DNA from: a virus
DNA: 64,000 nt
IMG/VR virus record: IMGVR_UViG_3300028625_000001
Coordinates: 50,725 to 114,724 of that record
Strand: one strand, 5' to 3'
This document shows, one piece after another, positions 7,239 to 34,585 of this stretch (positions are counted from its first letter, which is position 1; each line of letters starts with the position of its first letter). The notes beneath the pieces were generated by a model. The model was not told where the DNA came from and did no database searches. It was given only the letters and a program-made list of their open reading frames with translations. The position numbers and the translations under genes are program-made.

Positions 7239-7682
7239 ATGACCTATAAATGGTTAATTACATACACAGAGGGCAGCGAACAAAAAAACAAAGAACTGAA
7301 AGTAAACCCGACCTCGATGCGAGATGGTTCTTCAGTCTCGGTCCAGAAAGATATCGATTTGAAGAATCAACCCATGACAATTATTATTGGCGATTACCAG
7401 AGAACTTCTTTCACGGCCGAAATCCTTTATGGCGATGAAGAAGAACTCTTGTTTTGGAATACCCTAGCAGCTATGCAAACGGTCTTTACAATAAAGGATC
7501 ATGTGTATCGCAGAGCCGAAAGCGACGGAGTATTTCCCGTGGGTGTAACTACTCTTACAGAGCTGGAACCGTTACACAAACACCAGTGCGTGTTATCCAA
7601 CATAAGTCACACCTATATAACGCGGACTGTCCCCCAGAGATACAACATTACCCTGACTTTTGAGCCTGTGGTGACGTCATGA
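7239..7682 (+). CDS. Hypothetical tail-tip protein (occupies the distal-tail-protein position), 147 aa
   Basis: GAGAGGAGGA SD upstream of the ATG. Its stop overlaps the next start (ATGA). Function is inferred only from position after the tape measure. Confidence 0.5.
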   Translation: MTYKWLITYTEGSEQKNKELKVNPTSMRDGSSVSVQKDIDLKNQPMTIIIGDYQRTSFTAEILYGDEEELLFWNTLAAMQTVFTIKDHVYRRAESDGVFPVGVTTLTELEPLHKHQCVLSNISHTYITRTVPQRYNITLTFEPVVTS

Positions 7683-10777: not shown

Positions 10778-10790
10778 GGGGGGATGGGTA

Positions 10791-19700: not shown

Positions 19701-22700
19701 TATCTAAGATACTATAACGGCATACTGACTATTAAAGGAGTAATAGAAGCTACCGGCGGTTTCTTCGATGAGGTTGTTTATGTCGGAGTCGAAGAAGGCG
19801 AGCGAATACTTCTTGATGGAGTTAATAAGCTGATAAGGTCTGAGAACTACCAGGCGGGAACTGCCGGGTTCGAATTGAACGGCGATGGTACTGCCGAGTT
19901 CAATAACATAACTGTCCGCGGGAGCGTCCACGCCAGCGAAGGTTCGATAGACGGTGTTATGACGATCGGAGATATAGAGATCGGAGTCGGAGTCAACGAA
20001 GGCGCGGGCACTGGCTGGTTCGTTGATGAGAATAATTACTGGTACTCTAATCTAGGTTTCTCAATAGGCAATGGCACTACAAATAAGTTCCAGTATTCGC
20101 CGGAAGGCGGGCTAGAAATAGTTACCACTAAGATTTTAGTAGATATAGACGAGAACATCTTAATCGATAGTGAAAACAAGGTTATTGCTATCGGTACGAT
20201 GACCGGATTCGATACTGCCAGCGGGAACGGTGTCTTTACAGGAATGTATAATAGCAAGCCCTCTTTTAAGGTGGGGCAGAATGATCCCGACGGAGACCTT
20301 CAGAAAGGGATCTCTTATTATGACGGCGTCTTTAGCTTTATGGGAGCCGTTATATCTATGGAGAACCTTGATGACCCGACCCAAGAAGCGTTATCAGGCT
20401 ATGAAGTAATGATCTCTCCCGCGGGAGATAGCGTCTATAATGACGGAACCACAAGAACTCCGGCATCAATAAACTTCACAGCGACGCTACTAAGAAAAGT
20501 AGATAACACATTAGTTTCAAGCGGACTCGCTTATTACTGGACTGTGGAAACCGATGGCGGTATAACCATACCATCCGGCGCGCTAACCGCAACGGCAACG
20601 GTCAATACGTCAAATATGACCGGTCCGTCGGTTATAAAAGTCAAAGTCACTTACCAGGAGAAAGACTATTATGGTTATGCAAGTCTAGCCTATTCCGAAA
20701 AAGGAACCGGCGGAGACGATGCGGTGATCTACTGGCTTACTTCCAGTAAGGAGAAAGTAGTTTACAATCCGAACACCGGGCAGTACGATGGAGGAGCGAG
20801 CTCAAGTATAGTCTTTACCGCAAAAGAAGCCGTTGGACAGGTTGTACAAAATAAGACTGGTTTATACTGGAAGGTCAACGGAGTTAATGCGGAACCTGAC
20901 GCTAATGGTTATCAAAAGACTGTTGCGGTAAGCAGTCAGACTACAACGACGATAGAGATATATGCCGACTTTGCCAGAGAACAATTACTAGATACCTTTA
21001 CTGTTCCTGTCATAACTGAAGGTTCTGACTCATACTCGATTATTCTGTCGAATGAACATCAGACAGTTGAGTCTAATTATGACGGTACTTCTCCAACCCC
21101 TGCTAGTATCTCCACTCAGGTAAAGCTTTATAAGGGAACGACGGAGATAACTTCGTTTACAGTCGAGGCGACCGGAGCAACAGTAGATGGAAAAACAGTC
21201 ACTGTAACTATCCCTTCTAGTTCTACTATGGCAGGTTCTCAAGACATAACCGTCAAAATAGACAGTACGATAATTGGCGTAAAAACTCTCACCTGGTCTA
21301 AGTCTCCGCAAGGAGAGCCGGGAATCGGCGGGGAAGATGCTCAAGCATTATTCCTTACGGCGGACGCTCAGATATTCAAGGCAGATCAGGACAACACAAT
21401 CACCTCTGGAGATATTACTCTTGAAGCTTTCCTTCAGAATCTGTCCGGCACTATTACCTGGACTGCAAAGAACCAGAGTAATAATGACATCACACTAACC
21501 GGAACGGGGAGTACCAGAACCCTTACCGCAGCCAACTTTGGTGCAAGCGATTGGGTTAAGATAACTGTTTCTCTCGGTGGATTGAGCGATTCCATAACCA
21601 TTGTCAGAGTTAAGGAAGGGTCTAATGCGATAGTAGGTTTCCTAACCAACGAGTCGCATAATGTGCCTTGTGACTCTGACGGTTCTAATCCAGACTTCAC
21701 GGGAGCTTCTTCTATTCTTAAGATATTTAGGGGGAACACGCAAGAGACTTCTGGTTGGTCATGTTCCTGGTCTTTGATTACAGGTACGGCGACCGGGCAG
21801 GCAAGTACGACAACCCTGACTAACGACACAATTACTATACAGTCGCTTTCAACCGACGTGGCCGTTTATAGATGTACCGCCACGAAGTCCGGGCAATCAT
21901 CAGTTGTAAAAGACTTTACCATAACTAAGTCTTATGCCGGAGACCCTGGAGATCCTGGCGCGGACGCGACATCTTATTACATCACTTCAACAAAGGACAA
22001 GATTGTTTACGATCCCGGGACAGGGCAGTATGACGGCGGGGCCACAACAACCGTTACCCTCTCTGGTTGGAGAAAGGAAGGCACTAACTCTCCACAGGCG
22101 ACAAGCTTCTACTGGAAACGGGGAGCAACTGCTTTAGGAGCAGCCACATCCAAAACAATTACCGTGCCTACCGATACAAGTTCTTCATTCACAATGACAG
22201 CTTATATCGATTCTAGTTACACCTATCTAGCGGCCTCCTTTACTGTCGCTATCGTTGCTTCTGGCGAACCCGGAGACCCTGGTGGAGACGGAGTGACAAG
22301 ATATATTTCCGCGACAAAGGATAAGGTAGTCTATGACCCGAACACGGGGTTATACGATGGTTCGGCTTCGACAACAATAACGTTTACGGCCAAAAAGGTA
22401 GTTGGTGACGGAAGCCCTGCTAACGAGACAGTTTACTGGAAAAGAGGGAGTAGCGCATTAGGTTCTGGCACGAGCAAATCGGTGGTTGTGCCGACGGATA
22501 CGAACACCTCATTTACTATGTATACTTATGCGGACTCGGGTTATACCATACTTTTGAGTTCGTTTACGGTATCGGTAGTTACTTCCGGGGCCAGTATCTA
22601 CGCCTTGCCGACGGCAAGTGCTTATCACGTAGAATACAACGGTTCGTCTTACTCGCCGTCCTCAGTAACCATCACTCCGGCATTGAAACAGGGTACAACT

Positions 22701-24335
22701 TCATTGTCTTTTACCAACTGGAGGATTAAGTATATAAACATCAGTGGGGACTTAATAACGATCAATAGGAGTACGTCATCCGCTTATAGCTTCAGTATGT
22801 CTCTAGCTCAGTTTATAGTACCAAAAACCGACGTAGTACTCATCATCGAGATCGATTATGGCGGGGTAACATATACTGCCAGACTAATAATCGTTGTCGA
22901 GGACACCAGGTATGGTTGGCTGTCACAATGGACCGGGACAACACTGATCGGTGGAACGTATATCGTAACTCCCACTGCCTTCATGGGAACCGACGCTAAT
23001 AATGGAGTCCTCATAGACGCTAACGGTATTCTTGGAAAGAAGAGCGGGGCAAAAACTTTTGAGCTTACAGATGATGGGGATCTTGATGTCGCTTCAGGTC
23101 GGATAGGAGGATCTTCCGGCTGGTTAATTGAAACTCTTTCAGGAAAAGGAAGAATTTCAAGTACGGGAATAGAGTTAGTCTCCGGTGATGACGCATATAT
23201 TCAGGCCGGTAGTTCGGAGGAGAACTATCGAATGAACGCAAATGGGCTTGAGTATCGGCGGCTTATAAAAGCCAGGATCAATAATATAAAGGCTTATGCT
23301 GAATGTGACGCCTCGGCTTCAGCGATAATAGAAGTTTGGTATCGCTGGACTGAAAATTATTCCGACGCATCGCCCACCTGGTCTGGTTGGCAACACCCGG
23401 ACGACTTGAACTTTTCGGCTTCTTTTACCTGGTATATATCTCCGACAGATCCAATTTACGGCGCCGATATGACAGACTTTGCAATGCAATTTAAGTTTGT
23501 CATATACTCAACTTCTGTATTCAAGGCCAAGCTCCAGAAATGGAATGTATATATTAACGACGAACCAAGCCTAACAGTCGAAATAGACACTATGGAACAA
23601 TTCCAAGCACATGCAGACGCTACAACGAGCGGGATCACTTATAGTAGTGGCGGCTATGTCCAACCAACAAGCTATTCCAGCTCTGGAACTTACGTCACAA
23701 AGGCAAGCTCTATCAGAGAAGAGATCGAACCAGGCACAGATATTTCAAAAGTTCTACACTCTATCCATAAAGGGACAATCTATTTTGATGGAACTAGCGG
23801 AGATATGTCTAAAAGAATCCAACATAACAAGCATATTATGCCAACCCGGTACGACGTAATTTTAAACGAAAGCAACTCCCAAATATGGAAAAGTAGCTTT
23901 AGCACCGGGACTAACTACACCCGAAAGATAGAAGTGACTAAAGCAGAAGATTATTTCGACATCTTGTTTTGTGCTGAAGAAGGAACCACCAGTACAAACA
24001 TTGGGACTATCGGTATGCAATCAAACAACACTTGGTTAATCCTTGCAAACGTAGCTAATTGTTCGAAAATCGAGTTTGATGTTTATCATTGGGGCGGCTT
24101 CCGCATATTTAAAGAACACGTTTCGTACAGTTTTTCATCTCCGTATACAGGAGATATTGGATATAAATACTATGACGGCGTTCTTTACTTAAGTTGGAAC
24201 GGGGACACAACCTCCGAATATCAAATAGAGGGGCTTGTTGGGATGGTTGCTGCCAGAGATATTATTAAATGGACTTCAGGAACGAGATACCCACTCACAG
24301 GGAATTTCAACTACGAAATCCAGGTTTGGCAATAA
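10791..24335 (+). CDS. Giant tail fibre/adhesin-like structural protein, 4514 aa
   Basis: Single 13.5-kb ORF. ATG 10791 is preceded by an AAGGGGGGA SD (the track start 10770 is TTG with no SD). It contains FN3-like modules, about 29 units of 55-61 aa, about 7 units of 28 aa, and Ig-like/collagen-like C-terminal modules. Confidence 0.8.
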   Translation: MNTLDKYVQKHIVKYSGAGPISKGGGASSNLSMSLDTAALAGRIDDIEEQLKLIAASLKNYHTLSITFENIDLPLVDIHVSGGMAVLSGYTEVIPETTITVDTSLWVAGVNKYIVWYNGTIVVADEILEGYKLLAYIIIPEDWDGTVSNSYKDGAAYISIAGPIDELDPYYGEVLILELDAEAGPFFCIVHASWDPLGSPDVSHYILSYTIDGNNWENISTANPAASFEAPHNIQVAAKVQAVFNNGRKTHWSATEIIQTPGDDTIPLPVTGLEVTSQFGIIKAIWDESTDIDFDTFEIQVARDDQFTDPEVTFTTNTSYAFAGEPEATYYIRVRVIDYSSNTSLWSDTIEIETVMGDGNTPAAPTGLTLVPILEDETSYITATWDRNEELDIVSYELAISYDQTNWVDYQTPKTTKTIEVVGGVTLYAKVRALDNEGLVSAWSDIVETTTAHDTEAPNIPVGLTITNSFGIVYFTWTANGEADFSHYIIQISQTDQFSTYDEVIQRTNSYSFSGIPGTTYYVRIKSVDYSGNESDWSSIASTTVTAGDGQPPATPTGLSLTTYLQSYSSYIEATWDENEEVDLLGYQIAWSLDQLKWNILSVNSPEANFSVPGNSTIYVKVKALDVEGLASQWSDAESITSTEDEEAPATPVLLSNIPLYARALIEIEEQEESDFSHFLVSYKDRSFTTSTTNIEIPLDPGESGVSVSIKAVDLSGNESPALAVSASARTLSEAEEEFFELINKVHGGSTNTETIAYITDDLVDHMNITKPTAFDRSGLLKDDVYDTIDRIDNIDYGDLTLPMESVFERIDTDFISVGSSLFEARSKIFDIEIGGEIKNIDEWVGVINTDVSDITTRIDFINYGELTGTIETVLGSVYSNVSAISEKIYDIVIGEITLDIDEWIDQINSDLSGVMTRINAVVYGSLTDTIEDVLAAVHGDISGIETKVFDIEIGEVTHDIDEWMGLLNGDVAGIISRLENVSYNETIDTIETQIAAIALDINGLSSIVYDITIDETTQDVNQWISTLSQRADSIELSISGISQTVGEHTSSISQMSIDISGIEAVVYNITIDTVTQDVDQWVTQIKQEADAITLRLDHVVIDEDDQTLEQHVSQIKLDISGIESVVYDITIDTVTQDINQWVSTLSQRSDSIELSVQGLSQTVGEHSSSLSQLTIDVSGIEGVVYNIQIGEDAQDVDQWISTLSQRADSIELSVSGLSSDVGENSASISQLVIDVSGIEGVVYDITVGEATQNVDQWVSQIKQEADAITLRLDHVVIDEDDLTLEQHVSQIKLDINGIESVVYDIQIGETTQDINQWISTLSQRADSIELNVSGLSQTVSTHTTNISSLQLDVSGIEAIVKDITIGTVTQDVNEWVSQIKQEADAITLRLDNVVVDESTKTVEQHLSQIVLDIDGIEAIVKDITIDEVTQDVDLWISTLSQRADSIELSVQTVSQTVEGHTTTISQLSIDVSGIEGIVYNIEIGEDQYDVDQWISVLSQRADSIELSVTNLSGDVGTNTASIGQLTIDVEGIKTLVYDVTVGDVTHDIDEWLSALSQEDISIKQDLEAAALALRSKIESEFTNAETVLYIVGDPLDHQTDTAPINYDRTTSIFDITYDTFERLNNFEIDGVTGTIEYWASSISQTTQNITLRIDGIVYDGEQKTLEQAFSAIEMNIDGITSTVYDLEIDGTTQNIDQWVSQIKQETDNITFRLDHFVIDQEDMTAEQHVSQLKLSIDGLESVVYSIQVDEITQDVDLWISTLSQRADGIELNVSTLSSTVDGHTSSISSIQLDVGAIELIVKDITVDETTQDADEWISQIKQEADAITLRLDHVIIDEDDQTFEQHISQFRLDIDGITSIVTDITVGEETQDVDQWVSTLSQRADSIELSITGLTSDVGTNTSNISQLLIDVSGIELIVKSHTIGETTQDLDLWVTQIKQEADAITLRLDGIEIDEETKTIEQHLAQIVLDIDGIESIVYNITIGEDQYDVDGWISVLSQRADAIELSVSTLEDNTTTSLSALSIQVGEIEAIVYDIEIGEDTYDVKEWVTLLKQTTNSISLAVEGLETDLGTAESNISQLQISVGSISSIVQNVEIEGVTKNLDVWVSEVKQTAEGILARVDAISYNGEEGTIEEQFAALSLDISGLSSKVYSINIDGNVQDIDEWLATLNTQDETLEESIDDAVDSLRIKINSEFADASTLMYIAGDLQDHQSLLSPISYDRVDSIFDVAYNTLDRLNLFEVNGITDTIEYWVSSINQTANNIELRVDGITYNGETKTLEQAFSAIELDIDGITSTVYNIEIDGTTQDIDQWISQIKQEADNITLRLDHVVIDENDQTLEQHISLLKIDVDGITSIVTDITIDEETYDVNQWVSVLSQRSDAIELSVSTLSGDVASAISQLTIDVSGIEGVVYNITIDETTQNIDEWVSQIKQEADAITLRLDHVVIGEDDQTLEQHVSQIKIDIGGVESIVYDIQIGETTQDVNEWVSQIKQESDAIELRVETAEGTITSHSSSISSLNLSVDGIEAVVYNIAVEEEGDTHDVDEWLALFHIRENAIELSVTNLSTTVSSNTQSISSIEVDVGAIDLRVQTVESTTSTHTTQISDLDIALGTITATVGSIEDTVDGHTSSISQIELDISGITSTVQTISDTVGGHTSQISQINQDIGSIELAVQEVEEDVGTNTSAIAQIELSIDGITTSISTLETTVGGHTSQISQIELDIGTIELSVLSISSTVGQHTIDISAINVSLGEITTIVGTIEEDLDQEGDPLTQTYNYSLFQQLADSIALRVVAVDEFGDPQATELIIEDGLVTIAADQFRVHGDAMINGSVSGDKLKANSVETNKLIVWPDIPIDDETAEYWGTSLLGALGITLPDGMDEVTKENLADLLPPGTILAEYFAVGQKMVVGNKVVIERDLDDYGHMTVFDSDYEIVVKVGENATPDGRDGMFINTGGAFQVGQLVDPNYLRYYNGILTIKGVIEATGGFFDEVVYVGVEEGERILLDGVNKLIRSENYQAGTAGFELNGDGTAEFNNITVRGSVHASEGSIDGVMTIGDIEIGVGVNEGAGTGWFVDENNYWYSNLGFSIGNGTTNKFQYSPEGGLEIVTTKILVDIDENILIDSENKVIAIGTMTGFDTASGNGVFTGMYNSKPSFKVGQNDPDGDLQKGISYYDGVFSFMGAVISMENLDDPTQEALSGYEVMISPAGDSVYNDGTTRTPASINFTATLLRKVDNTLVSSGLAYYWTVETDGGITIPSGALTATATVNTSNMTGPSVIKVKVTYQEKDYYGYASLAYSEKGTGGDDAVIYWLTSSKEKVVYNPNTGQYDGGASSSIVFTAKEAVGQVVQNKTGLYWKVNGVNAEPDANGYQKTVAVSSQTTTTIEIYADFAREQLLDTFTVPVITEGSDSYSIILSNEHQTVESNYDGTSPTPASISTQVKLYKGTTEITSFTVEATGATVDGKTVTVTIPSSSTMAGSQDITVKIDSTIIGVKTLTWSKSPQGEPGIGGEDAQALFLTADAQIFKADQDNTITSGDITLEAFLQNLSGTITWTAKNQSNNDITLTGTGSTRTLTAANFGASDWVKITVSLGGLSDSITIVRVKEGSNAIVGFLTNESHNVPCDSDGSNPDFTGASSILKIFRGNTQETSGWSCSWSLITGTATGQASTTTLTNDTITIQSLSTDVAVYRCTATKSGQSSVVKDFTITKSYAGDPGDPGADATSYYITSTKDKIVYDPGTGQYDGGATTTVTLSGWRKEGTNSPQATSFYWKRGATALGAATSKTITVPTDTSSSFTMTAYIDSSYTYLAASFTVAIVASGEPGDPGGDGVTRYISATKDKVVYDPNTGLYDGSASTTITFTAKKVVGDGSPANETVYWKRGSSALGSGTSKSVVVPTDTNTSFTMYTYADSGYTILLSSFTVSVVTSGASIYALPTASAYHVEYNGSSYSPSSVTITPALKQGTTSLSFTNWRIKYINISGDLITINRSTSSAYSFSMSLAQFIVPKTDVVLIIEIDYGGVTYTARLIIVVEDTRYGWLSQWTGTTLIGGTYIVTPTAFMGTDANNGVLIDANGILGKKSGAKTFELTDDGDLDVASGRIGGSSGWLIETLSGKGRISSTGIELVSGDDAYIQAGSSEENYRMNANGLEYRRLIKARINNIKAYAECDASASAIIEVWYRWTENYSDASPTWSGWQHPDDLNFSASFTWYISPTDPIYGADMTDFAMQFKFVIYSTSVFKAKLQKWNVYINDEPSLTVEIDTMEQFQAHADATTSGITYSSGGYVQPTSYSSSGTYVTKASSIREEIEPGTDISKVLHSIHKGTIYFDGTSGDMSKRIQHNKHIMPTRYDVILNESNSQIWKSSFSTGTNYTRKIEVTKAEDYFDILFCAEEGTTSTNIGTIGMQSNNTWLILANVANCSKIEFDVYHWGGFRIFKEHVSYSFSSPYTGDIGYKYYDGVLYLSWNGDTTSEYQIEGLVGMVAARDIIKWTSGTRYPLTGNFNYEIQVWQ
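11340..12990 (+). repeat. About 6 fibronectin-type-III-like modules within the giant fibre gene
   Basis: Recurrent ~90-aa pattern: P(A/T)xPTGL...(A/F)TWD/WT..(E/D)xD(F/I)xxY.(I/L)....(D/Q)...W...........Y(Y/V)(V/I)(R/K)(V/I)(R/K)(A/S)(V/L)D..GN.S.WS. Confidence 0.6.
13300..18540 (+). repeat. About 29 tandem 55-61-aa units (165-183 bp) in three blocks
   Basis: Two alternating unit types: ..TQDVDQWISTLSQRADSIELSVSGLSxxVGxHTSSISQLxIDVSGIEGVVYDIxIGE and ..TQDVxxWVSQIKQEADAITLRLDHVVIDEDDQTLEQHVSQIKLDIxGIESVVYDIxI. Blocks are separated by homologous ~80-aa linkers at about 12995-13300, 15470-15700 and 17300-17545. Confidence 0.85.
18540..19090 (+). repeat. About 7 tandem 28-aa (84-bp) units
   Basis: Units such as IEDTVDGHTSSISQIELDISGITSTVQT, ISDTVGGHTSQISQINQDIGSIELAVQE and LETTVGGHTSQISQIELDIGTIELSVLS. 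Confidence 0.8.
20700..22590 (+). repeat. Three copies of a ~105-aa module joined by short collagen-like G-x-P-G-D-P-G stretches
   Basis: GGDDAVIYWLTSSKEKVVYNPNTGQYDGGASSSIVFTAK..., GDPGDPGADATSYYITSTKDKIVYDPGTGQYDGGATTTVTLSG... and GEPGDPGGDGVTRYISATKDKVVYDPNTGLYDGSASTTITFTAK... Confidence 0.7.
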
Positions 24336-24345
24336 GGAGGCAGGT

Positions 24346-24570
24346 TTGATACAGAACAATAACATGAACAACCTGAAAGAGGGGGTAAGTTCTGTTTTTC
24401 AGAGTATCGCCGCGGCGAAGAACGCTCTAACCAGTGTCGCTTCGCTTGCGGCACCACTTATAGAACACGCGATAGCGGAACTGGAAAGCAGAATAACCCA
24501 ACTGGAATTAGAAAACCAAAAACTTAGAGAAGAAAACGAAAAGTTGAAAAAAGAGAAAAAACTAGAATAA
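24346..24570 (+). CDS. Small coiled-coil protein, 74 aa
   Basis: AGGAGG at 24335-24340 with an in-frame TTG at 24346 (5-nt spacer); the alternative is ATG 24364. C-terminal heptad-like ELESRITQLELENQKLREENEKLKKEKKLE. Confidence 0.55.
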   Translation: MIQNNNMNNLKEGVSSVFQSIAAAKNALTSVASLAAPLIEHAIAELESRITQLELENQKLREENEKLKKEKKLE

Positions 24571-24613
24571 AAACAACAAGCAACACGCTTTGAAAAGGAG
24601 GCATATTTATTTC

Positions 24614-24952
24614 ATGAACGAAATCTATAGAAACGCTATAGCTAACGCCGGAGCCGCCTTAATAACTCATATCGGGCTTGTTGATGAACTTGGACAAGAA
24701 CTAAGTGGCGGAGAGTATGTAAGACAGCCCGTTGCTTGGAACACGGCAACCGGAGGAGTCATACGTCCAACAGACAACCTAATCTTTCTTATCCCACCGG
24801 GAGTCACTATTGCTGGATGGAGAGGATATTCCGCAATATCCGGCGGGACTAATTATGGTGGCGGCGCCTTATCTTCTCAGACGTTTACAGGCGGCGGGCA
24901 ACTGACTCTTATAGCCGCTAACATGGGAATACTTCATCTAGGCGAGATATAA
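24614..24952 (+). CDS. Hypothetical structural protein, 112 aa
   Basis: AGGAGG at 24596-24601 and ATG at 24614. Lies in the co-directional late-gene array. Confidence 0.55.
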   Translation: MNEIYRNAIANAGAALITHIGLVDELGQELSGGEYVRQPVAWNTATGGVIRPTDNLIFLIPPGVTIAGWRGYSAISGGTNYGGGALSSQTFTGGGQLTLIAANMGILHLGEI

Positions 24953-24967
24953 AGAAGGTGATTAATA

Positions 24968-25396
24968 ATGCGGTTAAAAACAGCAAATAATGCAGGTTCA
25001 ACTTTAATGGCAGCAATCAGCGAATTAGATGTCTCCTTTACGGTGGCTGATGCGTCTTCTTTCCCCGACGTTCCCTTTCGTTGCACAATCCATAAAGGAG
25101 ATCCCGCGCAAGGAGAAATTATTGAAGTAGGAGCTAAAAATGGTAATACATTTTCTTCAATTGATCGAGGTTTAGAAAACACAGTTGCCGCCGCTTGGGA
25201 AATAGGAGACAAGATAGATGTCTTGATTACGGCCGGAATGTGCGAAGAGTTGGTTTCACAAGACGAGATGGAAGCTCATACAGAAGCAGAAAGACCACAT
25301 CAATTGATAGATCAAAGAGATTCAGCCGTTTATAACTATGGACTAAAAATTAACGAAGATGGAGTCTTAACTCTTGTTTTAGAGGAGGTAGTCTAA
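24968..25396 (+). CDS. Hypothetical tail-fibre-associated protein, 142 aa
   Basis: GAAGGTGA SD. The N-terminal pattern (LMAAISELDVSFTVADASSFPDVPF...GEIIEVGAKNGNTFSSIDRGLENT) resembles N-termini I recall from phage fibre proteins. This recognition is weak. Confidence 0.5.
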   Translation: MRLKTANNAGSTLMAAISELDVSFTVADASSFPDVPFRCTIHKGDPAQGEIIEVGAKNGNTFSSIDRGLENTVAAAWEIGDKIDVLITAGMCEELVSQDEMEAHTEAERPHQLIDQRDSAVYNYGLKINEDGVLTLVLEEVV

Positions 25397-25747
25397 ATGC
25401 TCGAAATTCCACTCCCAACAAATGAACAAATAGAGTCGCTTATTAAAATACACGGAATCTCCAGCGCTCCGGTTACTGGAACTAAAACCCTCGTTCCAGG
25501 GGTGGCAACTGAAGTGTTTGCTGGCGCCTCAAAGAAGGCGAATAGAACACTGATGACTATAAAAAACATTAGTAAATATTCTAACCCTTTAAGGCTTAGA
25601 TTAGGTGAGTCAACAGTTTCAGACACAAAGGGTTTTATTATCGAACCTCAAGCAACCTTAGTTTTGTATTTTAACCCAGATGTTGAGACTTCAATTTATG
25701 CAATACCAGAAACTAACGCTCTGTTGATTGAGGTGATCGAGATATGA
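25397..25747 (+). CDS. Hypothetical protein, 116 aa
   Basis: GAGGAGG SD; the start abuts the upstream stop. Confidence 0.6.
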   Translation: MLEIPLPTNEQIESLIKIHGISSAPVTGTKTLVPGVATEVFAGASKKANRTLMTIKNISKYSNPLRLRLGESTVSDTKGFIIEPQATLVLYFNPDVETSIYAIPETNALLIEVIEI

Positions 25748-25965
25748 CTTATAAAATTACAGACTTAGAAGACGGAAGAATAGAAATTGAAATAAGTTTT
25801 TTAGACGAGGATATTGATCTTGTTGGTAAAACGACAATTATTGGCGAAGAAAATGATGCCGAAAAATACCTTCCGTTTTTTGAAAAGGATCTAAGAGTCA
25901 ATTACTCTTATTTATTTCCAACTCCAGAGCCAGAGCTGATATTAGAAGAAGGTGATTTTATATGA
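25744..25965 (+). CDS. Hypothetical protein, 73 aa
   Basis: ATGA overlaps at both ends link it to the neighbouring genes. Confidence 0.55.
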   Translation: MTYKITDLEDGRIEIEISFLDEDIDLVGKTTIIGEENDAEKYLPFFEKDLRVNYSYLFPTPEPELILEEGDFI

Positions 25966-27137
25966 AGTACATCTCCGGCAAATATGTTCAAGGCGAACTC
26001 CTTGAAACCAGCAGGGAGATCGAAGACTGGATAACCGATTACTATGTGGCGAATGGCGCGGTCACCGACGCGACAATAAGAAATGACATGGATAGAAGAA
26101 TTAGAGACGTTTCGTTCGGCAGGAACGCGGTGATGTTTGACAACTCAAACTTTCCGTCGATCATGGTCCGTTTTCCGTTTATGAAGCTGAAAGAAATTGA
26201 TTCTTCGTGGGCTGATTCCCCACATCAGTCATTTATAAAGAACGGAGCTGTGAAGAATGAGTTTTGGGTGGGGAAATATCTCCCGATCGTAAACGGGTCC
26301 GGCGAGTCCGCGCGCGCCGTCTCCTTACGAAGGAGAGATCCGGCAAACAATATCAATTTCGACAACTCAAGACTGGCTTGTACTCAAAAAGGGACTGGCT
26401 GGCACTTGTTGACCAACGCTGAGTGGGCGTTAATTCTCCTTCTCGCTCATAAAAACCAGTTCTTCACTCGTGGAAACAACAGCTACGGGAAGGACTATGT
26501 AAAAACGGGCGAAACTGCCGAGGCAACATATATGAGCGGCGGAACTGTTTATAGAACGGCCACGGGTACGGGGCCGGTGGCATGGTCGCATGACGGAACT
26601 CCGTTCGGTGTCTTCGACCTGAATGGGAATGTCAATAAGTGGGTCGCGGGATTGCGGTTGAATGGCGGAGAGATCCAGATATTTGAGAACAACAACGCTG
26701 CCGACGGGACAAAAAATCATTCCGTTTCTAGCGACCAATGGAAGGCAATTCTCCAAGACGGTTCTCTGGTAGCGCCCGAGACAGAAGGAACATTGAAGAT
26801 GGACGCAACCAACGTAGATGGAAGCGGGAATATCGTCATCGGCACTACTGCCGATAACGTCTCAAACGGAACAACTTACGCGACGACCGCTTTCAAAAAC
26901 ATAGCGGCAAAGGGAGAAACAACCATACCGGCCATCCTGAAGCAGCTCGGTCTATTCCCTCAAAGCGCAAACTATCCGCATGGAACTGGATATATGCGGA
27001 ATCTCGGTGAGCGTTTGCCCTATCGTGGCGGTAACTACAACGGCACGTCCTATGGTGGTTTGTCGAACTTGTATCTCAACTACGACCGCACGAGCGTGCT
27101 TACGATTCTGGGGTTTTCGCTCGCTTGGCAACCGTGA
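25962..27137 (+). CDS. DGR target protein, Mtd-like receptor-binding protein with a C-terminal C-type-lectin/FGE-like fold, 391 aa
   Basis: AGGTGA SD. Motifs GTGWHLLTNAEWALI, GVFDLNGNVNKWVAG and C-terminal YRGGNY....GFSLA are typical of the FGE-sulfatase/CLec fold used by DGR targets. The VR occupies the last ~40 codons. Confidence 0.85.
   Translation: MKYISGKYVQGELLETSREIEDWITDYYVANGAVTDATIRNDMDRRIRDVSFGRNAVMFDNSNFPSIMVRFPFMKLKEIDSSWADSPHQSFIKNGAVKNEFWVGKYLPIVNGSGESARAVSLRRRDPANNINFDNSRLACTQKGTGWHLLTNAEWALILLLAHKNQFFTRGNNSYGKDYVKTGETAEATYMSGGTVYRTATGTGPVAWSHDGTPFGVFDLNGNVNKWVAGLRLNGGEIQIFENNNAADGTKNHSVSSDQWKAILQDGSLVAPETEGTLKMDATNVDGSGNIVIGTTADNVSNGTTYATTAFKNIAAKGETTIPAILKQLGLFPQSANYPHGTGYMRNLGERLPYRGGNYNGTSYGGLSNLYLNYDRTSVLTILGFSLAWQP
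27010..27125 (+). repeat. DGR variable repeat (VR)
   Basis: 116 bp aligning without gaps to 27544-27659. There are 9 mismatches, 8 of them opposite TR adenines. Confidence 0.9.
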
Positions 27138-27213
27138 TCTGTGCTTTGCGCTCTGTAATCTGCAAAAAAACCAAAGGGGGAGGAGCAGCATAGAACTCAA
27201 GATATTACAAAAG

Positions 27214-27522
27214 ATGTATGATCTGATCCTGTATATATACCCCGTACTCGCACAATTCCCGAAATCAGAGAAACATACTCTCGCGGCGGAAATCAAGAAG
27301 ACTTGCTTCGAGATCCTTAAGCTCATCACAAGAGCAAACAAGGAGAAACAGAAGCTCGAACATTTGAGGCAACTCGACGCTAGCCTAGAACTTCTCAGAA
27401 CTCAAGTTAGGTTGAGCGTCGATCTGAAGTTCATACCGACGAAGAAATACGAAGTCATCTCCAGACATCTTGCAGAAGTCGGAAAGATGCTCGGGGGATG
27501 GATAAGGTCATCTAAGTTCTAA
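27214..27522 (+). CDS. avd: DGR accessory variability determinant (Avd-like four-helix-bundle protein), 102 aa from ATG
   Basis: MYDLILYIYPVLAQFPKSEKHTLAAEIKKTCFEILKLITRANKEK... matches the Avd/S23p-like four-helix-bundle pattern. It lies between VR and TR. A possible non-canonical ATA start at 27190 sits 6 nt after GGAGG (27179-27183). Confidence 0.8.
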   Translation: MYDLILYIYPVLAQFPKSEKHTLAAEIKKTCFEILKLITRANKEKQKLEHLRQLDASLELLRTQVRLSVDLKFIPTKKYEVISRHLAEVGKMLGGWIRSSKF

Positions 27523-27543
27523 AGATATGGGAGAGACCCATTT

Positions 27544-27659
27544 AGCGTTTGCCCTATCGTGGCGGTAACTACAACAACACGTCCAATGCTGGTTTGTCGA
27601 ACTTGAATCTCAACAACGACCGCACGAGCGTGAATACGAATCTGGGGTTTTCGCTCGCT
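27544..27659 (+). repeat. DGR template repeat (TR)
   Basis: Non-coding copy of the VR. Read in the VR frame it has 10 AAY codons (RLPYRGGNYNNTSNAGLSNLNLNNDRTSVNTNLGFSLA). Confidence 0.9.
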
Positions 27660-27765
27660 CGTCCAATCCCGAAAAGACAGAAGTTGGAGATTCACGGATC
27701 TCTTTCCAGCGCTTAGAGGAACAAGGGGGTCTCTCCCACGCCAGACGGCGAAAAATCGGACTACT

Positions 27766-27796
27766 CCGCGGCCTATGGCAAAACCATGCGCCGCGG
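27766..27796 (+). promoter_or_regulatory. Stable hairpin in the TR-RT spacer (candidate DGR RNA structural element)
   Basis: CCGCGGC-CT-ATGG-CAAAA-CCAT-GC-GCCGCGG: a 7-bp and a 4-bp stem separated by a 2x2 internal loop, ending 18 nt upstream of the RT start codon at 27815. Confidence 0.5.
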
Positions 27797-27814
27797 TTAT
27801 CTTGAGGTAAAAAG

Positions 27815-28885
27815 ATGAAACGATACAGCAATATATATCCCCTGATATATGACTTCGAATCGTTGCTAACGGCGTATAGAAACGCGAGAAAACTCAAGAG
27901 ATACAGAAATGAGGTGCTTAAGTTCTCCGACAGGCTAGAAGAAAACCTTATTCTTATTCAAAATGAGCTTGTCTGGAAGACATATAAACAATCTCCTTAT
28001 AGAGAGTTCTTTGTAAACGAACCTAAAAGGAGATTGATTATGGCCCTGCCATTCAGAGATAGGGTCGTCCAGTGGTCTATTTATCAGAATCTTTCTCCGA
28101 TGCTTGAGAGGAAATATATCTCCGACAGCTATGCTTGCAGAAAAGGAAAAGGTGCGCATCAAGCTCTCGGCTGCTTACGGGAATGGCTCGGGAGTATTCC
28201 TGACCCAAAGAGATGGTATTACCTGAAACTGGATATTCATAAATACTTTTACCGAGTCAATCACAGAATACTTCTATCTATTTATGAGAAACATTTCCCT
28301 GACGAAGACCTCCTCTGGCTCCTTGAAAAGATTATCACGGCCAATGACGGGAATCTCGGCCTTGTTGACGGAAGCACGGATTATGACAATCGAATATGCG
28401 GCGTCGGGATGGCGGTCGGGAATCTTGTTTCTCAAATGAGTGCGAATGTCTATCTCAACGAGCTGGATCAGTTTGCAAAGAGAGAGCTTCAGATCCCGCA
28501 CTATACCAGGTATATGGATGATGTAATCTGCCTCTCGTCGAGCAAAAGACAGCTCCATGAATGGAGATGGGCGATGGAGGAATTTGTAGAGACGCGTCTG
28601 ACTCTTAGAAGTAACTCAAAGACCCAAATAAGGCCAGTCACAAACGGTATTGATTGGGTGGGTTACAGGCTCTGGCCAAACGTTGTCAGACTTAGGAAAA
28701 GCTCGGCTAAGAGGCTCAGGAGACGGTTAAAGTCTCTTAGGGATAAGTTTGTGAGCGGCACAATCACGTTTCAAGAGTTCGATAGTTCTTTCCAATCATA
28801 TATGGGAATGTTGAAGCACTGTTCAAGTGACGCTTTGAAAGAAAGCATCTGCGAGATGTTGGGAGGTCCGTTTTTATGGAGGTGA
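27815..28885 (+). CDS. DGR reverse transcriptase, 356 aa
   Basis: GAGGT SD. RT motifs include YMDDVICL and the DGR-typical GNLVSQMSANVYLNELD. It lies immediately downstream of the TR. Confidence 0.9.
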   Translation: MKRYSNIYPLIYDFESLLTAYRNARKLKRYRNEVLKFSDRLEENLILIQNELVWKTYKQSPYREFFVNEPKRRLIMALPFRDRVVQWSIYQNLSPMLERKYISDSYACRKGKGAHQALGCLREWLGSIPDPKRWYYLKLDIHKYFYRVNHRILLSIYEKHFPDEDLLWLLEKIITANDGNLGLVDGSTDYDNRICGVGMAVGNLVSQMSANVYLNELDQFAKRELQIPHYTRYMDDVICLSSSKRQLHEWRWAMEEFVETRLTLRSNSKTQIRPVTNGIDWVGYRLWPNVVRLRKSSAKRLRRRLKSLRDKFVSGTITFQEFDSSFQSYMGMLKHCSSDALKESICEMLGGPFLWR

Positions 28886-28888
28886 AAA

Positions 28889-30130
28889 ATGGCTTTTAGA
28901 CTCAATACGACTAAGTTTAACGCTTTAGCATGGATTGTTGCCGAGGATGCTTCAGAAGCATCTCTTTATATAGACGGAGTTTCTAATTATAGATCACTTA
29001 GTTCTGTTTTTAGAGATAAAGTGTCTGGGCAAATAATTTCCTATGATGCGATTTCCACTTTCCCATTTCTAGGTGGGCTTAAAACCAAAAGCGGATATAT
29101 TCACCCGACTGGTCTTCTCTCAGTAACTGCCCGAGATGACGATATCCCGTTTATTGGCATAAAGGGGTTTGGGCTAGAGGATAATACGATAAACCTGCTC
29201 GGGCATAATAACTACTCAACTGACTGGTCTTTATGGCCACACTTTGACCAACTAGAGCTTTGGAGTAATATTTCCCAAACAGAATCTCCAACATTGGGAA
29301 AAGTGTTTGTCGCTAACCCCGCCGCGCTAACAACTAGATTGTATACAGAAAACCTAGAAGACCTGACAGACACTAATCATGTTGCAAGTGTGTATATGCA
29401 AGCAAATAGAGCTATCGAAGTCGAGATGTATGCAACTTTAAACGACATCGAGAGCGATCATCAAACAATAGTCCTATCTCCCTCTTGGAAGAGAGTTCAA
29501 TTTCTATTAGAAAACAACGAGTCTATCTCCTCTGGAGTCTTATCGTTCTTTATTGTGACTCCTTCCATCAACGTTAGATTTATGGCGGCGAAACCTCAAT
29601 TAGAAGAAGGAGAATATGCTTCTTCATTCTGTATGTATGAAAAACCAAAAGACGCCATGTCTTACGGATTAAAATATGACATAGAGGAGCAAGGAACTAT
29701 ATCTTTCTGGCTTAAAAGTACAAAAGGAAACGAAAACGCTAACTTTTTCTCTATCTCGGAAGACACTAATTTATTATCTAATGCGATAAAACTAGACAAG
29801 GTGGCCATTCCCGCCGGAATCCGTTTATCTCAATATAAAGATAATGCGCCAGTTTCTGTCTTTTATCCATTCCCGCACAATAATGTTTATCACCATTACG
29901 CAATCACTTGGTCGGAAGCAAACGGGATTAAGCTTTTTATCGATGGAGATTTTATAGTTGTCATTCCGTATCGAATTATCCCTTTAACATCAATTGTTTT
30001 TGATAAACGAGGTAATAGGCTAATAGCCAACCTAAGAGTGGATAAGCGAGAAGTCCCCGCCGCGGAAATTGCAGAGTGGGCACAAATGGATAGACCATTT
30101 GCAGTGCCAAATAGAGTCCCCGTGTCGTAA
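28889..30130 (+). CDS. LamG/concanavalin-A-like lectin-domain protein, 413 aa
   Basis: GGAGGTGA SD. C-terminal pattern GTISFWLKS...NFFSI...YHHYAITWSEANGIKLFIDGDF is typical of the LamG jelly-roll. Confidence 0.6.
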   Translation: MAFRLNTTKFNALAWIVAEDASEASLYIDGVSNYRSLSSVFRDKVSGQIISYDAISTFPFLGGLKTKSGYIHPTGLLSVTARDDDIPFIGIKGFGLEDNTINLLGHNNYSTDWSLWPHFDQLELWSNISQTESPTLGKVFVANPAALTTRLYTENLEDLTDTNHVASVYMQANRAIEVEMYATLNDIESDHQTIVLSPSWKRVQFLLENNESISSGVLSFFIVTPSINVRFMAAKPQLEEGEYASSFCMYEKPKDAMSYGLKYDIEEQGTISFWLKSTKGNENANFFSISEDTNLLSNAIKLDKVAIPAGIRLSQYKDNAPVSVFYPFPHNNVYHHYAITWSEANGIKLFIDGDFIVVIPYRIIPLTSIVFDKRGNRLIANLRVDKREVPAAEIAEWAQMDRPFAVPNRVPVS

Positions 30131-30173
30131 GATCGGGGGCTCCTTCTCAATTCCAATTAAGGGGGGCTAAGAC

Positions 30174-31073
30174 TTGAATATATCACAGCTTATCGGAGAT
30201 AAACCCGTTACTAAGAAAGCTCCATGGGATCTCTATGACTTGAACGAAGAGATCCCGTATTTCTTCCCGAATATACCACCGGAACTAGACTATATAAACC
30301 TCTTTATCTTTGGAGACTGGCACGTCGAAGCTAATACGTCTGATTGGATTCTTCTGTCTTACATCGTCGAGTTACTAAAAGAACCTCATAACTATCTAAT
30401 AAATCCTGGAGATACCTTCGAGATTCCTTTTGATGACGACGTAGGCACTTTAATGGAGCAAAGAGTAACCACTACACAGGCATATCGGGTGACAAAACAT
30501 ATATTAGCCCCTGTCGCCGATAAGATTCTATTGATGATCGAGGGGAATCACCCGCGACGGGCACGTAAAAGAGCCGGTATAGATATTACAGGTATGCTAT
30601 GCGAAGATTTAGGTATTAACTATTCAAGAGGAAAGGCGGCAGCAACAATTCGCGTAGGGAAAAAGAGTAAGAATGGAAAACCGGCCGCTTATACTTTTGG
30701 AGTGAATCATGGGAGAGGCGGAGGAAGGACAGACGGAGCCAAAGCTCAGGCAAGGTTCTGGGAAAGTGTTACATGGGAAAACGTAGATGCGGTACTTATA
30801 GGCCATATACATACTCCTGGTTACGAATCGAGGGCTAGGGTCAAACCAGACCCACAGAATAAGAGCGTCAAGGCTAAAGAGTATATACAGATATCCGCTC
30901 CGTCCGCTATGAAGTTCGCCGAATATGCACAGACCGGCGGCTATTCCCCGCCGACTTTCAGGATTCCTATACTAAAGTTGAGCGGTAAGGAGAAAAAGAT
31001 CGATATCGAGTTTCCTGACTTTAACTCGGGGATTCGAGACTTCTACCAGAAGAACAAGAAATTCTTCAAGTAA
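30174..31073 (+). CDS. Calcineurin-like metallophosphoesterase, 299 aa
   Basis: TTG start 7 nt after AAGGGGGG. Ordered motifs GDWH, PGDTFE, EGNHP, NHGRGG and LIGHIHTP. Confidence 0.7.
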   Translation: MNISQLIGDKPVTKKAPWDLYDLNEEIPYFFPNIPPELDYINLFIFGDWHVEANTSDWILLSYIVELLKEPHNYLINPGDTFEIPFDDDVGTLMEQRVTTTQAYRVTKHILAPVADKILLMIEGNHPRRARKRAGIDITGMLCEDLGINYSRGKAAATIRVGKKSKNGKPAAYTFGVNHGRGGGRTDGAKAQARFWESVTWENVDAVLIGHIHTPGYESRARVKPDPQNKSVKAKEYIQISAPSAMKFAEYAQTGGYSPPTFRIPILKLSGKEKKIDIEFPDFNSGIRDFYQKNKKFFK

Positions 31074-32081: not shown

Positions 32082-32772
32082 ATCTCACGATGACCTCTTG
32101 TAGCTTATGTAGCCCGTATTTGCTTTCATCCTTTAATTCCTCTGCAAGCTTTTTTATGTCGTTGTATGGAACGGTCTGATCTCCCGGCTGTGGGTTGTAT
32201 TGTTGTAGCACTATCCTCTTTGCCCACCCTAATATGGTGGTTATTTTATAGAACTCTTCAGGCGAGACGTATCCAGGATACATAGTTATCCTGAACTCAT
32301 AGTCTTTGGCATACTTTATGACTGTTTTGACTGATTGACACAGGTCATAGCCGCTCATTACTCTATCCGGTTGAAAAACCCCGTCGGAATAGATCTCCAT
32401 CGGTCCTTTGATGTCCATAGCCACATAGTCTATGAAGGGCAATATCTCCTTCAATATCTGAGTGTCGGAACCGTTAGTGTCTACCTTTATCAAAAGACCA
32501 GGGACTTCCTTTTTAATAGCCCAGATATACTTGAGTAGGTCTTTGTTTATTGTAGGCTCGCCGCCGGAGAACACGACGGCCTCAATCTTATTCTCCCGAC
32601 TCTTCAAGTAATCAAGAATCTCTATAAAAGGAACCTCTTCCCCACTACTATCCCAAAGATGTTTGTTGTGGCAATACTTACAGGCAAAATTACACCCGTA
32701 GGAAAAGATTGTTGTTGCTATCTTCCCCGGGTAATCCACCAGGCTTACTTTCTCGTACCCTGCTATCTTCAT
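32080..32772 (-). CDS. nrdG: Anaerobic ribonucleotide reductase activating protein (radical SAM), 230 aa
   Basis: CNFACKYCHN radical-SAM cluster motif near the N-terminus. The ATG at 32772 is preceded by GGGAGAGG. The longer track ORF (to 32937) is an out-of-frame run through the nrdD 3' end. Confidence 0.85.
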   Translation of the reverse strand: MKIAGYEKVSLVDYPGKIATTIFSYGCNFACKYCHNKHLWDSSGEEVPFIEILDYLKSRENKIEAVVFSGGEPTINKDLLKYIWAIKKEVPGLLIKVDTNGSDTQILKEILPFIDYVAMDIKGPMEIYSDGVFQPDRVMSGYDLCQSVKTVIKYAKDYEFRITMYPGYVSPEEFYKITTILGWAKRIVLQQYNPQPGDQTVPYNDIKKLAEELKDESKYGLHKLQEVIVR

Positions 32773-34585
32773 GTAACCTCTCCCTTCCCGGCAGGTAGGT
32801 TCTTCTTTCCTTAAATTCCTCCTGTTTCCCTTTGTTCCAGTTCTGAACTGGACGATAATATCCAGTAATCCTCGAATAGACTTCTGTCTCTCTCCCACAT
32901 ATAGGACATTCATATTGCTCGCCGTTGATATATCCATGATCTGGGCAAACAGAATACGTAGGTGAGATCGTTATATACGGGATTCGATAATTGGTAAGTA
33001 TTTTCCTTACCAATCCCATTGTAGTTCGCCAATCTGTTATCTTTTCCCCCAAGAAGGTATGAAAAACGGTACCGCCTGTATAAAGTGTCTGAAGTTCTTC
33101 CTGTAGGTCTAAAGCTTCGAATACATCGCTGGTGAAACCGACCGGCAAATGGGTTGAGTTAGTGTAATACGGATCTCTCTGTCCCGCGGTAATGATCTCG
33201 GGATATTTCATTTTGTCTATCCTGGCTAATCTATAAGCCGTAGACTCCGCGGGAGTCGCTTCGAGGTTATATAGATTCCCCGTGCTCTCCTGATAATCCC
33301 CCAGCTTAGTTCTCATGAAGTCTAAGACTCTGACGGCGAAAATCCTCGACTCCTCTTTATAGATCGGCTGCCTTACCCATTTAGCATTGAGACATGCTTC
33401 GTTCATTCCGACTAGTCCTATAGTCGAGAAGTGATTGTCATAATGCTGAAGATATCTCTTCGTGTATGGATACAACCCTCGCTGGTTAAACCGGTTTATT
33501 GTTTCTCTTTTTACTTCAAGGGAGTCTTTGGCTAGATTCATCAAAACGTCTAGTTTGTTGAAAAACTCCACTTCGTTTTCACTAAGATATGCTAGTCGCG
33601 GCAAATTGATGGTGACTACTCCAATAGACCCGGTAAAAGCATCCGACCCGAACAATCCCCCGCCTCGTCTCTTCAATTCTCGACGGTCTAGGGTCAATCT
33701 ACAACAAAGACTCCTTACATCGTCGGGATTAAGATCGGAGTTTATAAAGTTTTGGAAATAGGGGGTCCCATATTTGCCCGTTATTTCAAAAAGGAGCCGG
33801 GTGTTTTGGTTGTCCCAATCAAAATCTTTCCCGATATTGTACGTCGGGATAGGATATTGAAAGCCGCGGCCATTAGCGTCTCCTTCGTCGTATAGCTCCA
33901 GGAGAGCCCTATTTATCATATCCGATTCTCTTTGACAGGACCCATATGTAAAGCTTTGTTCTTTTCCGCCTATTATTGCCGGTTTCTCTTTATAGCTCTC
34001 TGGTATTGTCCAGTTAAGAGTTATGTTGGAAAAGGGAGATTGTGTCCCCCAGCGAGAGGGTGTATTCAGTCCGAATAGGAATGATTGTATGCACTGTTTG
34101 ACTTCTTTATAAGATAGGTTGTCTATCTTGACGAAGGGGGCAAGATAAGTGTCGAAACCGGAGAAAGCCTGCGCACCGGCCCATTCGTTTTGCATAATCC
34201 CCATAAAGTTGACCATCTGGTTTATAAGCGTGGATAAGTGTTTCGCCGGAGAGCTGGACAGTTTCTGAGAAACGCCGCCTAATCCTTCGCGTATGAGTTG
34301 TTCGAGGTCCCACCCGGCGCAATAACCCGAAAGCATTGAAAGGTCATGTATATGAAAGTCTCCATTCCTATGCGCATTGGCAATATCTTCGTTGTAAACC
34401 TTACCCAGCCAGTAATTAGCCGTCATTGCACCTGCTTCATGGAGGATAAGTCCTCCAATCGAGTAAGTGACAGTCGAACTTTCCTTAGTCCTCCAATCGG
34501 TTTCAGTCAAATAACCATCAATAACTTTTTCGACATCTATAGTCTTTTTGTCTTCCATAGAAAAAGTCGGCCCGTAGGCCGACAT
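32690..34585 (-). CDS. nrdD: Anaerobic (class III) ribonucleoside-triphosphate reductase, 631 aa
   Basis: GGGAGGTGA SD. C-terminal Zn-ribbon CPDHG...CPICG and glycyl-radical region SRITGYYRPVQNWNKGKQEEF. No ATP-cone seen. Confidence 0.88.
   Translation of the reverse strand: MSAYGPTFSMEDKKTIDVEKVIDGYLTETDWRTKESSTVTYSIGGLILHEAGAMTANYWLGKVYNEDIANAHRNGDFHIHDLSMLSGYCAGWDLEQLIREGLGGVSQKLSSSPAKHLSTLINQMVNFMGIMQNEWAGAQAFSGFDTYLAPFVKIDNLSYKEVKQCIQSFLFGLNTPSRWGTQSPFSNITLNWTIPESYKEKPAIIGGKEQSFTYGSCQRESDMINRALLELYDEGDANGRGFQYPIPTYNIGKDFDWDNQNTRLLFEITGKYGTPYFQNFINSDLNPDDVRSLCCRLTLDRRELKRRGGGLFGSDAFTGSIGVVTINLPRLAYLSENEVEFFNKLDVLMNLAKDSLEVKRETINRFNQRGLYPYTKRYLQHYDNHFSTIGLVGMNEACLNAKWVRQPIYKEESRIFAVRVLDFMRTKLGDYQESTGNLYNLEATPAESTAYRLARIDKMKYPEIITAGQRDPYYTNSTHLPVGFTSDVFEALDLQEELQTLYTGGTVFHTFLGEKITDWRTTMGLVRKILTNYRIPYITISPTYSVCPDHGYINGEQYECPICGRETEVYSRITGYYRPVQNWNKGKQEEFKERRTYLPGRERLHEDSRVRESKPGGLPGEDSNNNLFLRV

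Follow-up and report, generated by a model that had tools for sequence, protein, structure and literature searches.

Does the locus at positions 25962-28885 of a large virus genome combine, in working order, the parts of a diversity-generating retroelement (DGR), in which a template repeat (TR) is copied with adenine mutagenesis into the variable repeat (VR) of a target gene? The locus lies in a 64,000-nucleotide (nt) stretch of IMG/VR virus record IMGVR_UViG_3300028625_000001 (positions 50,725 to 114,724 of that record), which was analysed whole and is referred to here as the window; positions are those of the window unless a contig is named. We are highly confident that 25962-28885 is a complete and functional DGR with the order target (containing VR), avd, TR, spacer and reverse transcriptase (RT) gene, situated where the tail-fibre module of a large phage ends. 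It is canonical and evidently active, a clean case of a well-known system. A preliminary description, made from the letters of the window, had proposed a complete element with a target, an Avd-like gene between VR and TR and then an RT; its coordinates all match ours, including the target open reading frame (ORF) at 25962-27137, the end of avd at 27522 and the RT gene at 27815-28885. Each component was tested independently and passed, and the full set is present; the anatomy, the families to which the RT, Avd and target belong, and the purifying selection on RT and Avd are direct observations. The element is made up as follows:

25962-27137, plus strand: target (variable-protein) gene, 391 amino acids (aa); the C-terminus holds the VR, and the predicted fold is a C-type-lectin fold of FGE subtype, as in TaqVP.
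27010-27125, plus strand: VR, coding for target residues 351-388, in which at most 17 codons are changeable.
27107-27125, plus strand: adenine-free 19-nt 3' end of VR in the position of a site at which mutagenic homing is initiated (IMH), equal to TR 27641-27659.
27126-27189, plus strand: VR-specific downstream flank, in which lie the stop codon of the target (27135-27137), a conserved motif, CTGTAATCTGC (27153-27163), and the ribosome-binding site for avd.
27190-27522, plus strand: avd (accessory variability determinant), with its homologous start at ATA 27190 and its first ATG at 27214.
27544-27659, plus strand: TR, with 28 adenines and 10 AAY codons, in which substitution of A never yields a stop codon.
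27660-27814, plus strand: TR-RT spacer of 155 nt, with a probable divergent RT-14-type structured RNA at 27664-27796.
27815-28885, plus strand: DGR reverse transcriptase gene, 356 aa (Pfam RVT_1; PHROG 1423, E 1.6e-128).

A repeat search of the window returned a single 116-nt direct repeat, 27010-27125 and 27544-27659, ungapped, 92% identical and spaced by 534 nt, and a search of both strands of the window in which A positions served as wildcards found no further TR/VR-like copy. The sequences flanking VR and TR are unrelated on both sides, and the VR ends 12 nt from the target stop codon. Compared base by base the two repeats differ at nine of 116 nt, and eight of the nine differences are at TR adenines (27576, 27577, 27585, 27606, 27615, 27633, 27634 and 27640), each at position 1 or 2 of an AAY codon in the frame of the target ORF; given the 28 adenines in the TR, the hypergeometric probability of at least eight such mismatches is 3.7e-5. 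Six of the ten AAY codons in the TR frame are altered in the VR. The preliminary description had given the same gapless alignment, the same mismatches and the same codon count, and the recount agrees with it exactly, as do the TR and VR translations that it quoted. The protein repertoire open to the TR by adenine mutagenesis was computed as ~9.45e15 variants, with zero stop codons.

The RT carries YMDD (residues 233-236, at 28511-28522), as that description had noted, and VGNLVSQ (V201 to SQ207, at 28415-28435), which fits the DGR signature [I/V/L]GxxxSQ. Its R73 aligns with R74 of bRT, a residue that, together with the first residue of the signature motif, promotes adenine mutagenesis in BPP-1 (PMC7826257). 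The nearest solved RT is that of the BPP-1 DGR (8ub7_A, E 7.6e-46), with retron-type and group II RTs at E 4e-19 or weaker, and BLASTP against BPP-1 Brt gives 33% identity (E 5e-53). A disabled RT together with a VR without heterogeneity, or an RT grouping with retrons or group II introns, had been named as the result that would speak against a DGR; the reading frame is intact and under purifying selection (dN/dS 0.04-0.09), and the profile and structure matches favour a DGR RT.

The gene between the repeats is avd. Its product scores 132.8 bits against NCBIfam NF033474 ('diversity-generating retroelement protein Avd'; cutoff 80), which bears out the Avd-like label of the preliminary description, and it matches Pfam bAvd (E 2.3e-34) and the solved BPP-1 Avd (PDB 4dwl, 8ub7_B). 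The NCBI pipeline already gives the same name to a protein of the same cluster (90% identity). In the translation from 27190 the NF033474 model sets in at residue 3, which is upstream of the first ATG, and gene callers differ on the start, one giving 102 aa from the ATG and PGAP giving 106 aa, which implies ATA 27202. Like the RT gene, avd is under purifying selection (dN/dS at most 0.10). The Avd C-termini of cluster members come in two forms, ...SSKF and ...SSNINNSRAYGIICL (window 27511-27543), each ending at the stop codon, so the avd/TR junction is variable among relatives.

Relatives were collected by an RT-based scan of IMG/VR, which gave five contigs with RTs 94-98% identical to that of the window, and by a metagenome scan with a 22-mer of the VR junction, which gave four contigs, three of them duplicating IMG/VR loci and one new and independent (L014; contigs carry L numbers below). 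The six independent TR/VR pairs together hold 66 mismatches, of which 63 sit at TR adenines. Both the positions and the substitutions vary among the pairs, the first five having 24 A>G, 22 A>T and 7 A>C changes. Among the 20 columns with A in every TR the VRs vary in 18, and among the 79 columns in which all TRs have one and the same non-A base they vary in 2 (Fisher P 1.4e-15). Of the 48 non-A cells at sites where the TRs disagree with one another, 47 have a VR with the base of its own TR, and this tracking is the signature of continuing TR-to-VR copying. The contigs L003 and L014 align without gaps over 4,424 bases and have the same TR. Every one of the 19 differences between their VRs falls in a TR-A column, and the downstream 3,435 nt (from avd through TR and spacer to RT) contain two differences. 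At the protein level the 90%-identity cluster of the target has 37 members, whose 14 alleles that include the C-terminus give 13 distinct VR peptides, and the 14 columns of highest entropy among 391 are all TR-A codons (2.05 versus 0.09 bits; Mann-Whitney P 2.8e-23). Natural VR variation thus has the exact signature of TR-to-VR transfer with adenine mutagenesis. The preliminary description had suggested looking for VR changes confined to positions opposite TR adenines and had spoken of sequence evidence for mutagenic retrohoming; the first is seen across natural relatives and not in the window strain, and the second holds, through A-confined variation and TR tracking, at the level of the lineage.

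Two side observations concern these contigs. Although almost identical downstream, L003 and L014 differ by 49 substitutions in the body of the target gene, mostly at every third base and in two patches (L003 1-158 and 608-824), which suggests recombination mosaics within the target gene outside the VR. Many independent contigs have an end within the target gene or avd, between VR and TR, among them L002, L003, L004, L048 and L049, whose starts correspond to window 26058-27304; this is what one would see if the 116-nt near-repeat, or microdiversity in the VR, had broken the assemblies.

Several observations weigh against a complete and functional element. The location of the target in the virion and its binding of a receptor rest on gene neighbourhood. 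One VR/TR mismatch lies off adenine (C at TR 27589, G at VR 27055, giving Ala365Gly); it is unique to the window strain, with C in all other TRs and VRs and Ala in all other protein alleles, and is either a rare non-A error of the RT or a later point mutation. The spacer aligns with the full Rfam model RF02921 (RT-14, model positions 1-144) at the expected place and on the expected strand, with 27.2 bits (E 0.08-0.23), below the gathering score of 48.1. The homologous start of avd has an ATA in place of ATG, GTG or TTG, and this non-canonical or weak start may limit the translation and level of Avd. A GC-rich hairpin after the VR is absent, there being no stem of at least 5 bp within ~100 nt and, in a lenient scan with one mismatch allowed, no stem of at least 6 bp within the same distance. 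Finally, L048 and L049, which come from the same strain, do not differ from the window even in the VR, and no within-strain heterogeneity was seen.

The first of these points concerns what the DGR diversifies. The target matches PHROG 2889 (E 8.6e-101) and lies just above the cutoff of Pfam FGE-sulfatase (25.1 bits; cutoff 23.3), and its sole solved relative is TaqVP (PDB 5vf4, E 2.6e-60, target residues 39-376), the variable protein of a Thermus aquaticus DGR, which is monomeric and single-domain, with an FGE-subtype C-type-lectin fold and a VR at its extreme C-terminus (PMC6328139). A single-sequence AlphaFold2 model was discarded (mean pLDDT 31.3, pTM 0.18), and the fold assignment therefore rests on sequence homology to 5vf4. 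The preliminary description had called the target an Mtd-like C-type lectin: a C-type-lectin DGR target it is, but the likeness to Mtd does not extend beyond the fold class. BLASTP of the target against Mtd detects no similarity (E 0.67), the N-terminal beta-prism and beta-sandwich trimerisation domains that, with homology, define the Mtd family were not found in it, and a tblastn search with the target names no Bordetella phage among the matches listed (15 of 53 records).

An alternative reading is that the DGR is real and its target has another lectin-fold role, for example as a non-virion protein or an enzyme-like protein of FGE fold, rather than being a receptor-binding tail protein. TaqVP is encoded on a bacterial chromosome, has no known ligand and lacks the trimerising domains of Mtd (PMC6328139), PHROG 2889 is annotated 'unknown function', and the neighbourhood argument noted above is what places the target in the virion. 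We nevertheless consider this reading rather unlikely. The target adjoins tail-fibre-like ORFs and a giant structural ORF, with a ConA-like lectin ORF next; its homologues in isolated phages come after baseplate genes; phage DGRs mainly diversify host-attachment proteins (PMC8144416); and no obvious hydrophobic signal sequence is seen by eye at its N-terminus. The target is best regarded as a putative receptor-binding protein, and changes in its VR are likely to alter the adsorption specificity of the phage.

The absent hairpin, the ATA and the unchanging VR allele of the two same-strain contigs are what favour a further alternative, namely that the DGR of this lineage was once active and that the window copy is now inactive, or nearly so, with its VR allele frozen. 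Hairpins with 7-8 bp GC stems and GATA or GGTA loops follow the VR in L006-L009, and one with an 8-bp stem and a CGCA loop follows it in L012; the scan recovered all of these, as well as the 8-bp hairpin with GAAA loop of BPP-1, as positive controls. (The GATA-loop hairpins are at 3276-3295 in L006, 3283-3300 in L007 and 3276-3295 in L008.) At the homologous position avd begins with GTG in L005 and P0032, and with TTG in L006-L008. However, all six contigs of the window clade are without a GC-rich hairpin, and the ATA, preceded by GGGGGAGGAG, is shared by the window with L001, L003, L004 and L014, that is, with four of the five other members (L005 having GTG); yet their VRs are clearly diversified, with A-site alleles that track their own TRs. 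The L003/L014 pair combines identical TRs and 19 VR differences with almost no other divergence, purifying selection acts on RT and avd, both of which are intact, and an inverted repeat of the known type (GC-rich, with a 7-10 bp stem closed by a GRNA tetraloop and lying downstream of the VR by 4-34 bp) occurs in only 34% of 372 DGRs (PMC5758913). A frozen window copy is thus very unlikely. That the repeats are an ordinary diverged duplication and the RT that of a retron, group II intron or defence system has practically no chance of being right and is refuted: although the best NCBIfam RT model is a group II intron RT/maturase (in a library without a DGR RT model), members of the cluster are called 'retron-type reverse transcriptase' in some sources, and PADLOC gives generic RT matches (and only these, assigning Avd and target to no defence system), the RT falls below the curated cutoffs (group II 119.5 versus 300 bits; retron St85 34.1 versus 235) and matches the BPP-1 DGR RT far better, carries GxxxSQ and not QGxxxSP, and is accompanied by a curated Avd between repeats whose A-specific mismatch statistics exclude neutral divergence.

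Taking the element as a functional DGR, we can ask how donor and recipient are told apart. The final 19 nt, TCTGGGGTTTTCGCTCGCT, are the same in TR and VR and contain no adenine, so they are immune to mutagenesis, and they are kept in all relatives with the exception of L001, which has one G-to-A change in TR and VR alike. The preliminary description had called this end IMH-like; its position and its lack of adenines agree with that, and, the end being the same in both repeats, no difference inside the repeat separates an IMH from a non-identical IMH*. Being identical, the 19 nt alone are unable to tell donor from recipient, and with the cruciform also absent the direction of transfer would be set by the VR-specific flank from 27126 onward, of which 27126-27189 is a candidate discriminator. 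The motif CTGTAATCTGC in this flank stands directly 5' of the hairpin in L006-L008, and in the window clade it is followed by a run of A and the avd ribosome-binding site. The DNA fold of the region downstream of the VR is weaker than that of shuffled sequences (z-score +2.05). Efficient homing in BPP-1 requires the downstream hairpin (PMC3240598), and IMH is identical to IMH* in some DGRs (Wu et al., PMC5758913); we considered and rejected the idea that a missing hairpin combined with identical IMH and IMH* is new, both being within known variation (PMC5758913).

The spacer appears to be a divergent relative of RT-14 rather than a curated member of that family. At the same position L006-L008, whose RTs are ~50% identical to that of the window and whose TR/VR pairs are A-biased, score 60-66 bits against RF02921, above the gathering score, and the TR-RT spacers of L011 and L012 match Rfam RT-9 and RT-18 (the motifs are at 3827-3969 in L006, 3830-3977 in L007, 3830-3971 in L008, 3872-3965 in L011 and 3912-3988 in L012). 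An alignment of eight spacers contains four helices with compensatory changes, in which 85% of cells are paired versus 41-59% in slid controls, and covariation is 0.51 versus at most 0.20; among close relatives the spacer is 95.5-98.7% conserved. A pairing between the 3' end of the TR and the spacer predicted by RNAalifold was set aside because the alignment is unreliable in that region. Weinberg et al. (2017) connected RT-10 alone with the spacer of BPP-1, and offered a DGR association of other RT motifs as speculation (PMC5737381); the location of RT-14, RT-9 and RT-18 exactly between the TR and RT of A-biased DGRs indicates that they are DGR spacer RNAs. In BPP-1 the spacer recruits RT-Avd and provides the priming 2'-OH at Sp A56 (PMC6182149), and by analogy the window spacer would bind RT-Avd and take part in self-priming.

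The steps of the mechanism can be proposed by homology with BPP-1, for which self-primed, adenine-mutagenic cDNA synthesis by RT-Avd is known (PMC6182149); this applies to the priming chemistry, the role of the spacer and the recognition of the target site. The RT-Avd complex would bind an RNA that extends from the 3' end of avd through the TR and the structured spacer, and the RT would prime itself from the spacer and begin copying close to the TR's adenine-free 3' end. Reading through the TR, it would misincorporate specifically opposite template adenines, and the mutagenised cDNA would replace the VR, so that up to 17 codons, ten of them AAY, could be recoded at the presumed C-terminal ligand-binding face of the target. 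A scan of 25700-30300 for promoters and terminators gave background levels (9 versus 6.6 expected and 6 versus 4.3 expected, respectively).

The neighbourhood of the element consists, immediately upstream of the target, of a PHROG tail-fibre ORF (24968-25396) and a fibre-like ORF (24590-24952), preceded by a 4,521-aa ORF; a ConA-like lectin ORF lies downstream, and beyond it is a replication and repair module with an exonuclease, NrdD, a DnaB-type helicase and a DNA polymerase. Three giant ORFs lie upstream, at 38-7183 (2,381 aa), 7679-10777 (1,032 aa) and 10770-24335 (4,521 aa); none of them matches a PHROG, and Pfam matches are almost absent. The largest has weak Laminin_II and Ig-like matches and by eye is highly repetitive, with units of the form ...IDVSGIE.VVY.I.IGE.TQDVDQW.S.LSQRADSIELSV... 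The exact window RT is found on a 114,738-bp contig and a relative of it on a 359,628-bp contig. Megablast of 24500-30200 against 50,697 phage records gave no match, and the region is thus without a close isolated relative. A 9-kb contig with the cassette is binned in a Thermotogota metagenome-assembled genome (MDI9374566-8), and window 32690-34585 codes for the anaerobic ribonucleotide reductase NrdD; the two are weak hints of an anaerobic host, possibly a member of the Thermotogota.

Comparison with the relatives suggests that the cassette has moved between genomes. Similarity of 92-94% to L001/L015, L004/L016 and L014 is confined to window 25926/25932-28867, that is, to the cassette (L001 2119-5053, L016 5788-8732, L014 3110-6053), and its ends are sharp: the left one coincides with the ribosome-binding site of the target, and the right one lies 18 nt short of the RT stop codon. 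Outside it, the upstream ORF of these contigs is ~67% identical to that of the window and the downstream gene is unalignable. Only L005/L017 are syntenic with the window through the flanks, and the window RT gene has ~94% nucleotide identity to those of the non-syntenic group versus 87.5% to that of the syntenic L005. The confinement of similarity to the cassette, together with this discordance between RT and backbone, indicates exchange of the cassette between backbones. Ordinary phage mosaic recombination is the most likely route; we see only a very slim chance that the 2.94-kb cassette is itself mobile through RT-dependent reverse transcription and integration of a cassette-length transcript, with cruciform-free homing via CTGTAATCTGC.

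Large surveys have found DGRs to be broadly active, with three major lineages that are phage-borne and aimed at host-attachment proteins, and more than 31,000 DGRs have already been catalogued from IMG metagenomes (PMC8144416), so this locus is a documented example rather than a discovery. Its usefulness is threefold. It offers an unusually clean natural record of activity, in which VR alleles are numerous and track their own TRs, and a near-identical contig pair differs almost only at the TR-adenine positions of the VR. It presents diversification in a clade that has lost the downstream hairpin kept by its sister clade, which bears on target recognition without a cruciform. And it ties the orphan Rfam motif RT-14, with RT-9 and RT-18 in relatives, to the TR-RT spacer of DGRs.

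Among known systems the closest to the target is TaqVP, with homology over the full length (target 39-376 to TaqVP 9-370) and a VR that aligns gaplessly with that of the target (residues 320-376) at the same C-terminal position; the gene for TaqVP is on a bacterial chromosome and its product has no known ligand, whereas the window target is in a phage tail-fibre module. Among isolated phages, Faecalibacterium phage FP_Lagaffe, Clostridium phage Saumur and Bacillus phage BalMu-1 have RTs 46-49% identical to that of the window, and their targets, together with that of Pseudomonas phage Bise, are of TaqVP type and 33-40% identical, among the matches listed. FP_Lagaffe has the same target-Avd-RT order after baseplate genes. 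All four are below 50% identity to the window, and their genomes are 38-48 kb long, the window phage being much larger and its cassette lying near ORFs of 2,381 and 4,521 aa.

The prototype of the group is the mtd-avd-TR-brt DGR of BPP-1, with which the window shares gene order and strand logic, a VR at the extreme C-terminus of the target, AAY-centred mutagenesis, an adenine-free VR end and a similar TR-RT spacer length (144 nt in BPP-1, 155 nt in the window). The Avd proteins are 29% identical (E 1e-10), beside the 33% of the RTs. The two systems differ in their targets, which have no detectable similarity, the Mtd trimerising domains being missing from that of the window; in the hairpin after the VR (8 bp, GC, with a GAAA loop), present in BPP-1 only; in the VR and TR ends, IMH and IMH* differing in BPP-1 and the terminal 19 nt being identical in the window; in TR length (134 versus 116 nt); in the spacer RNA, of RT-10 type in BPP-1 and apparently of RT-14 type in the window; and in genome size, which is 42 kb for BPP-1 and at least 114 kb for the window phage.

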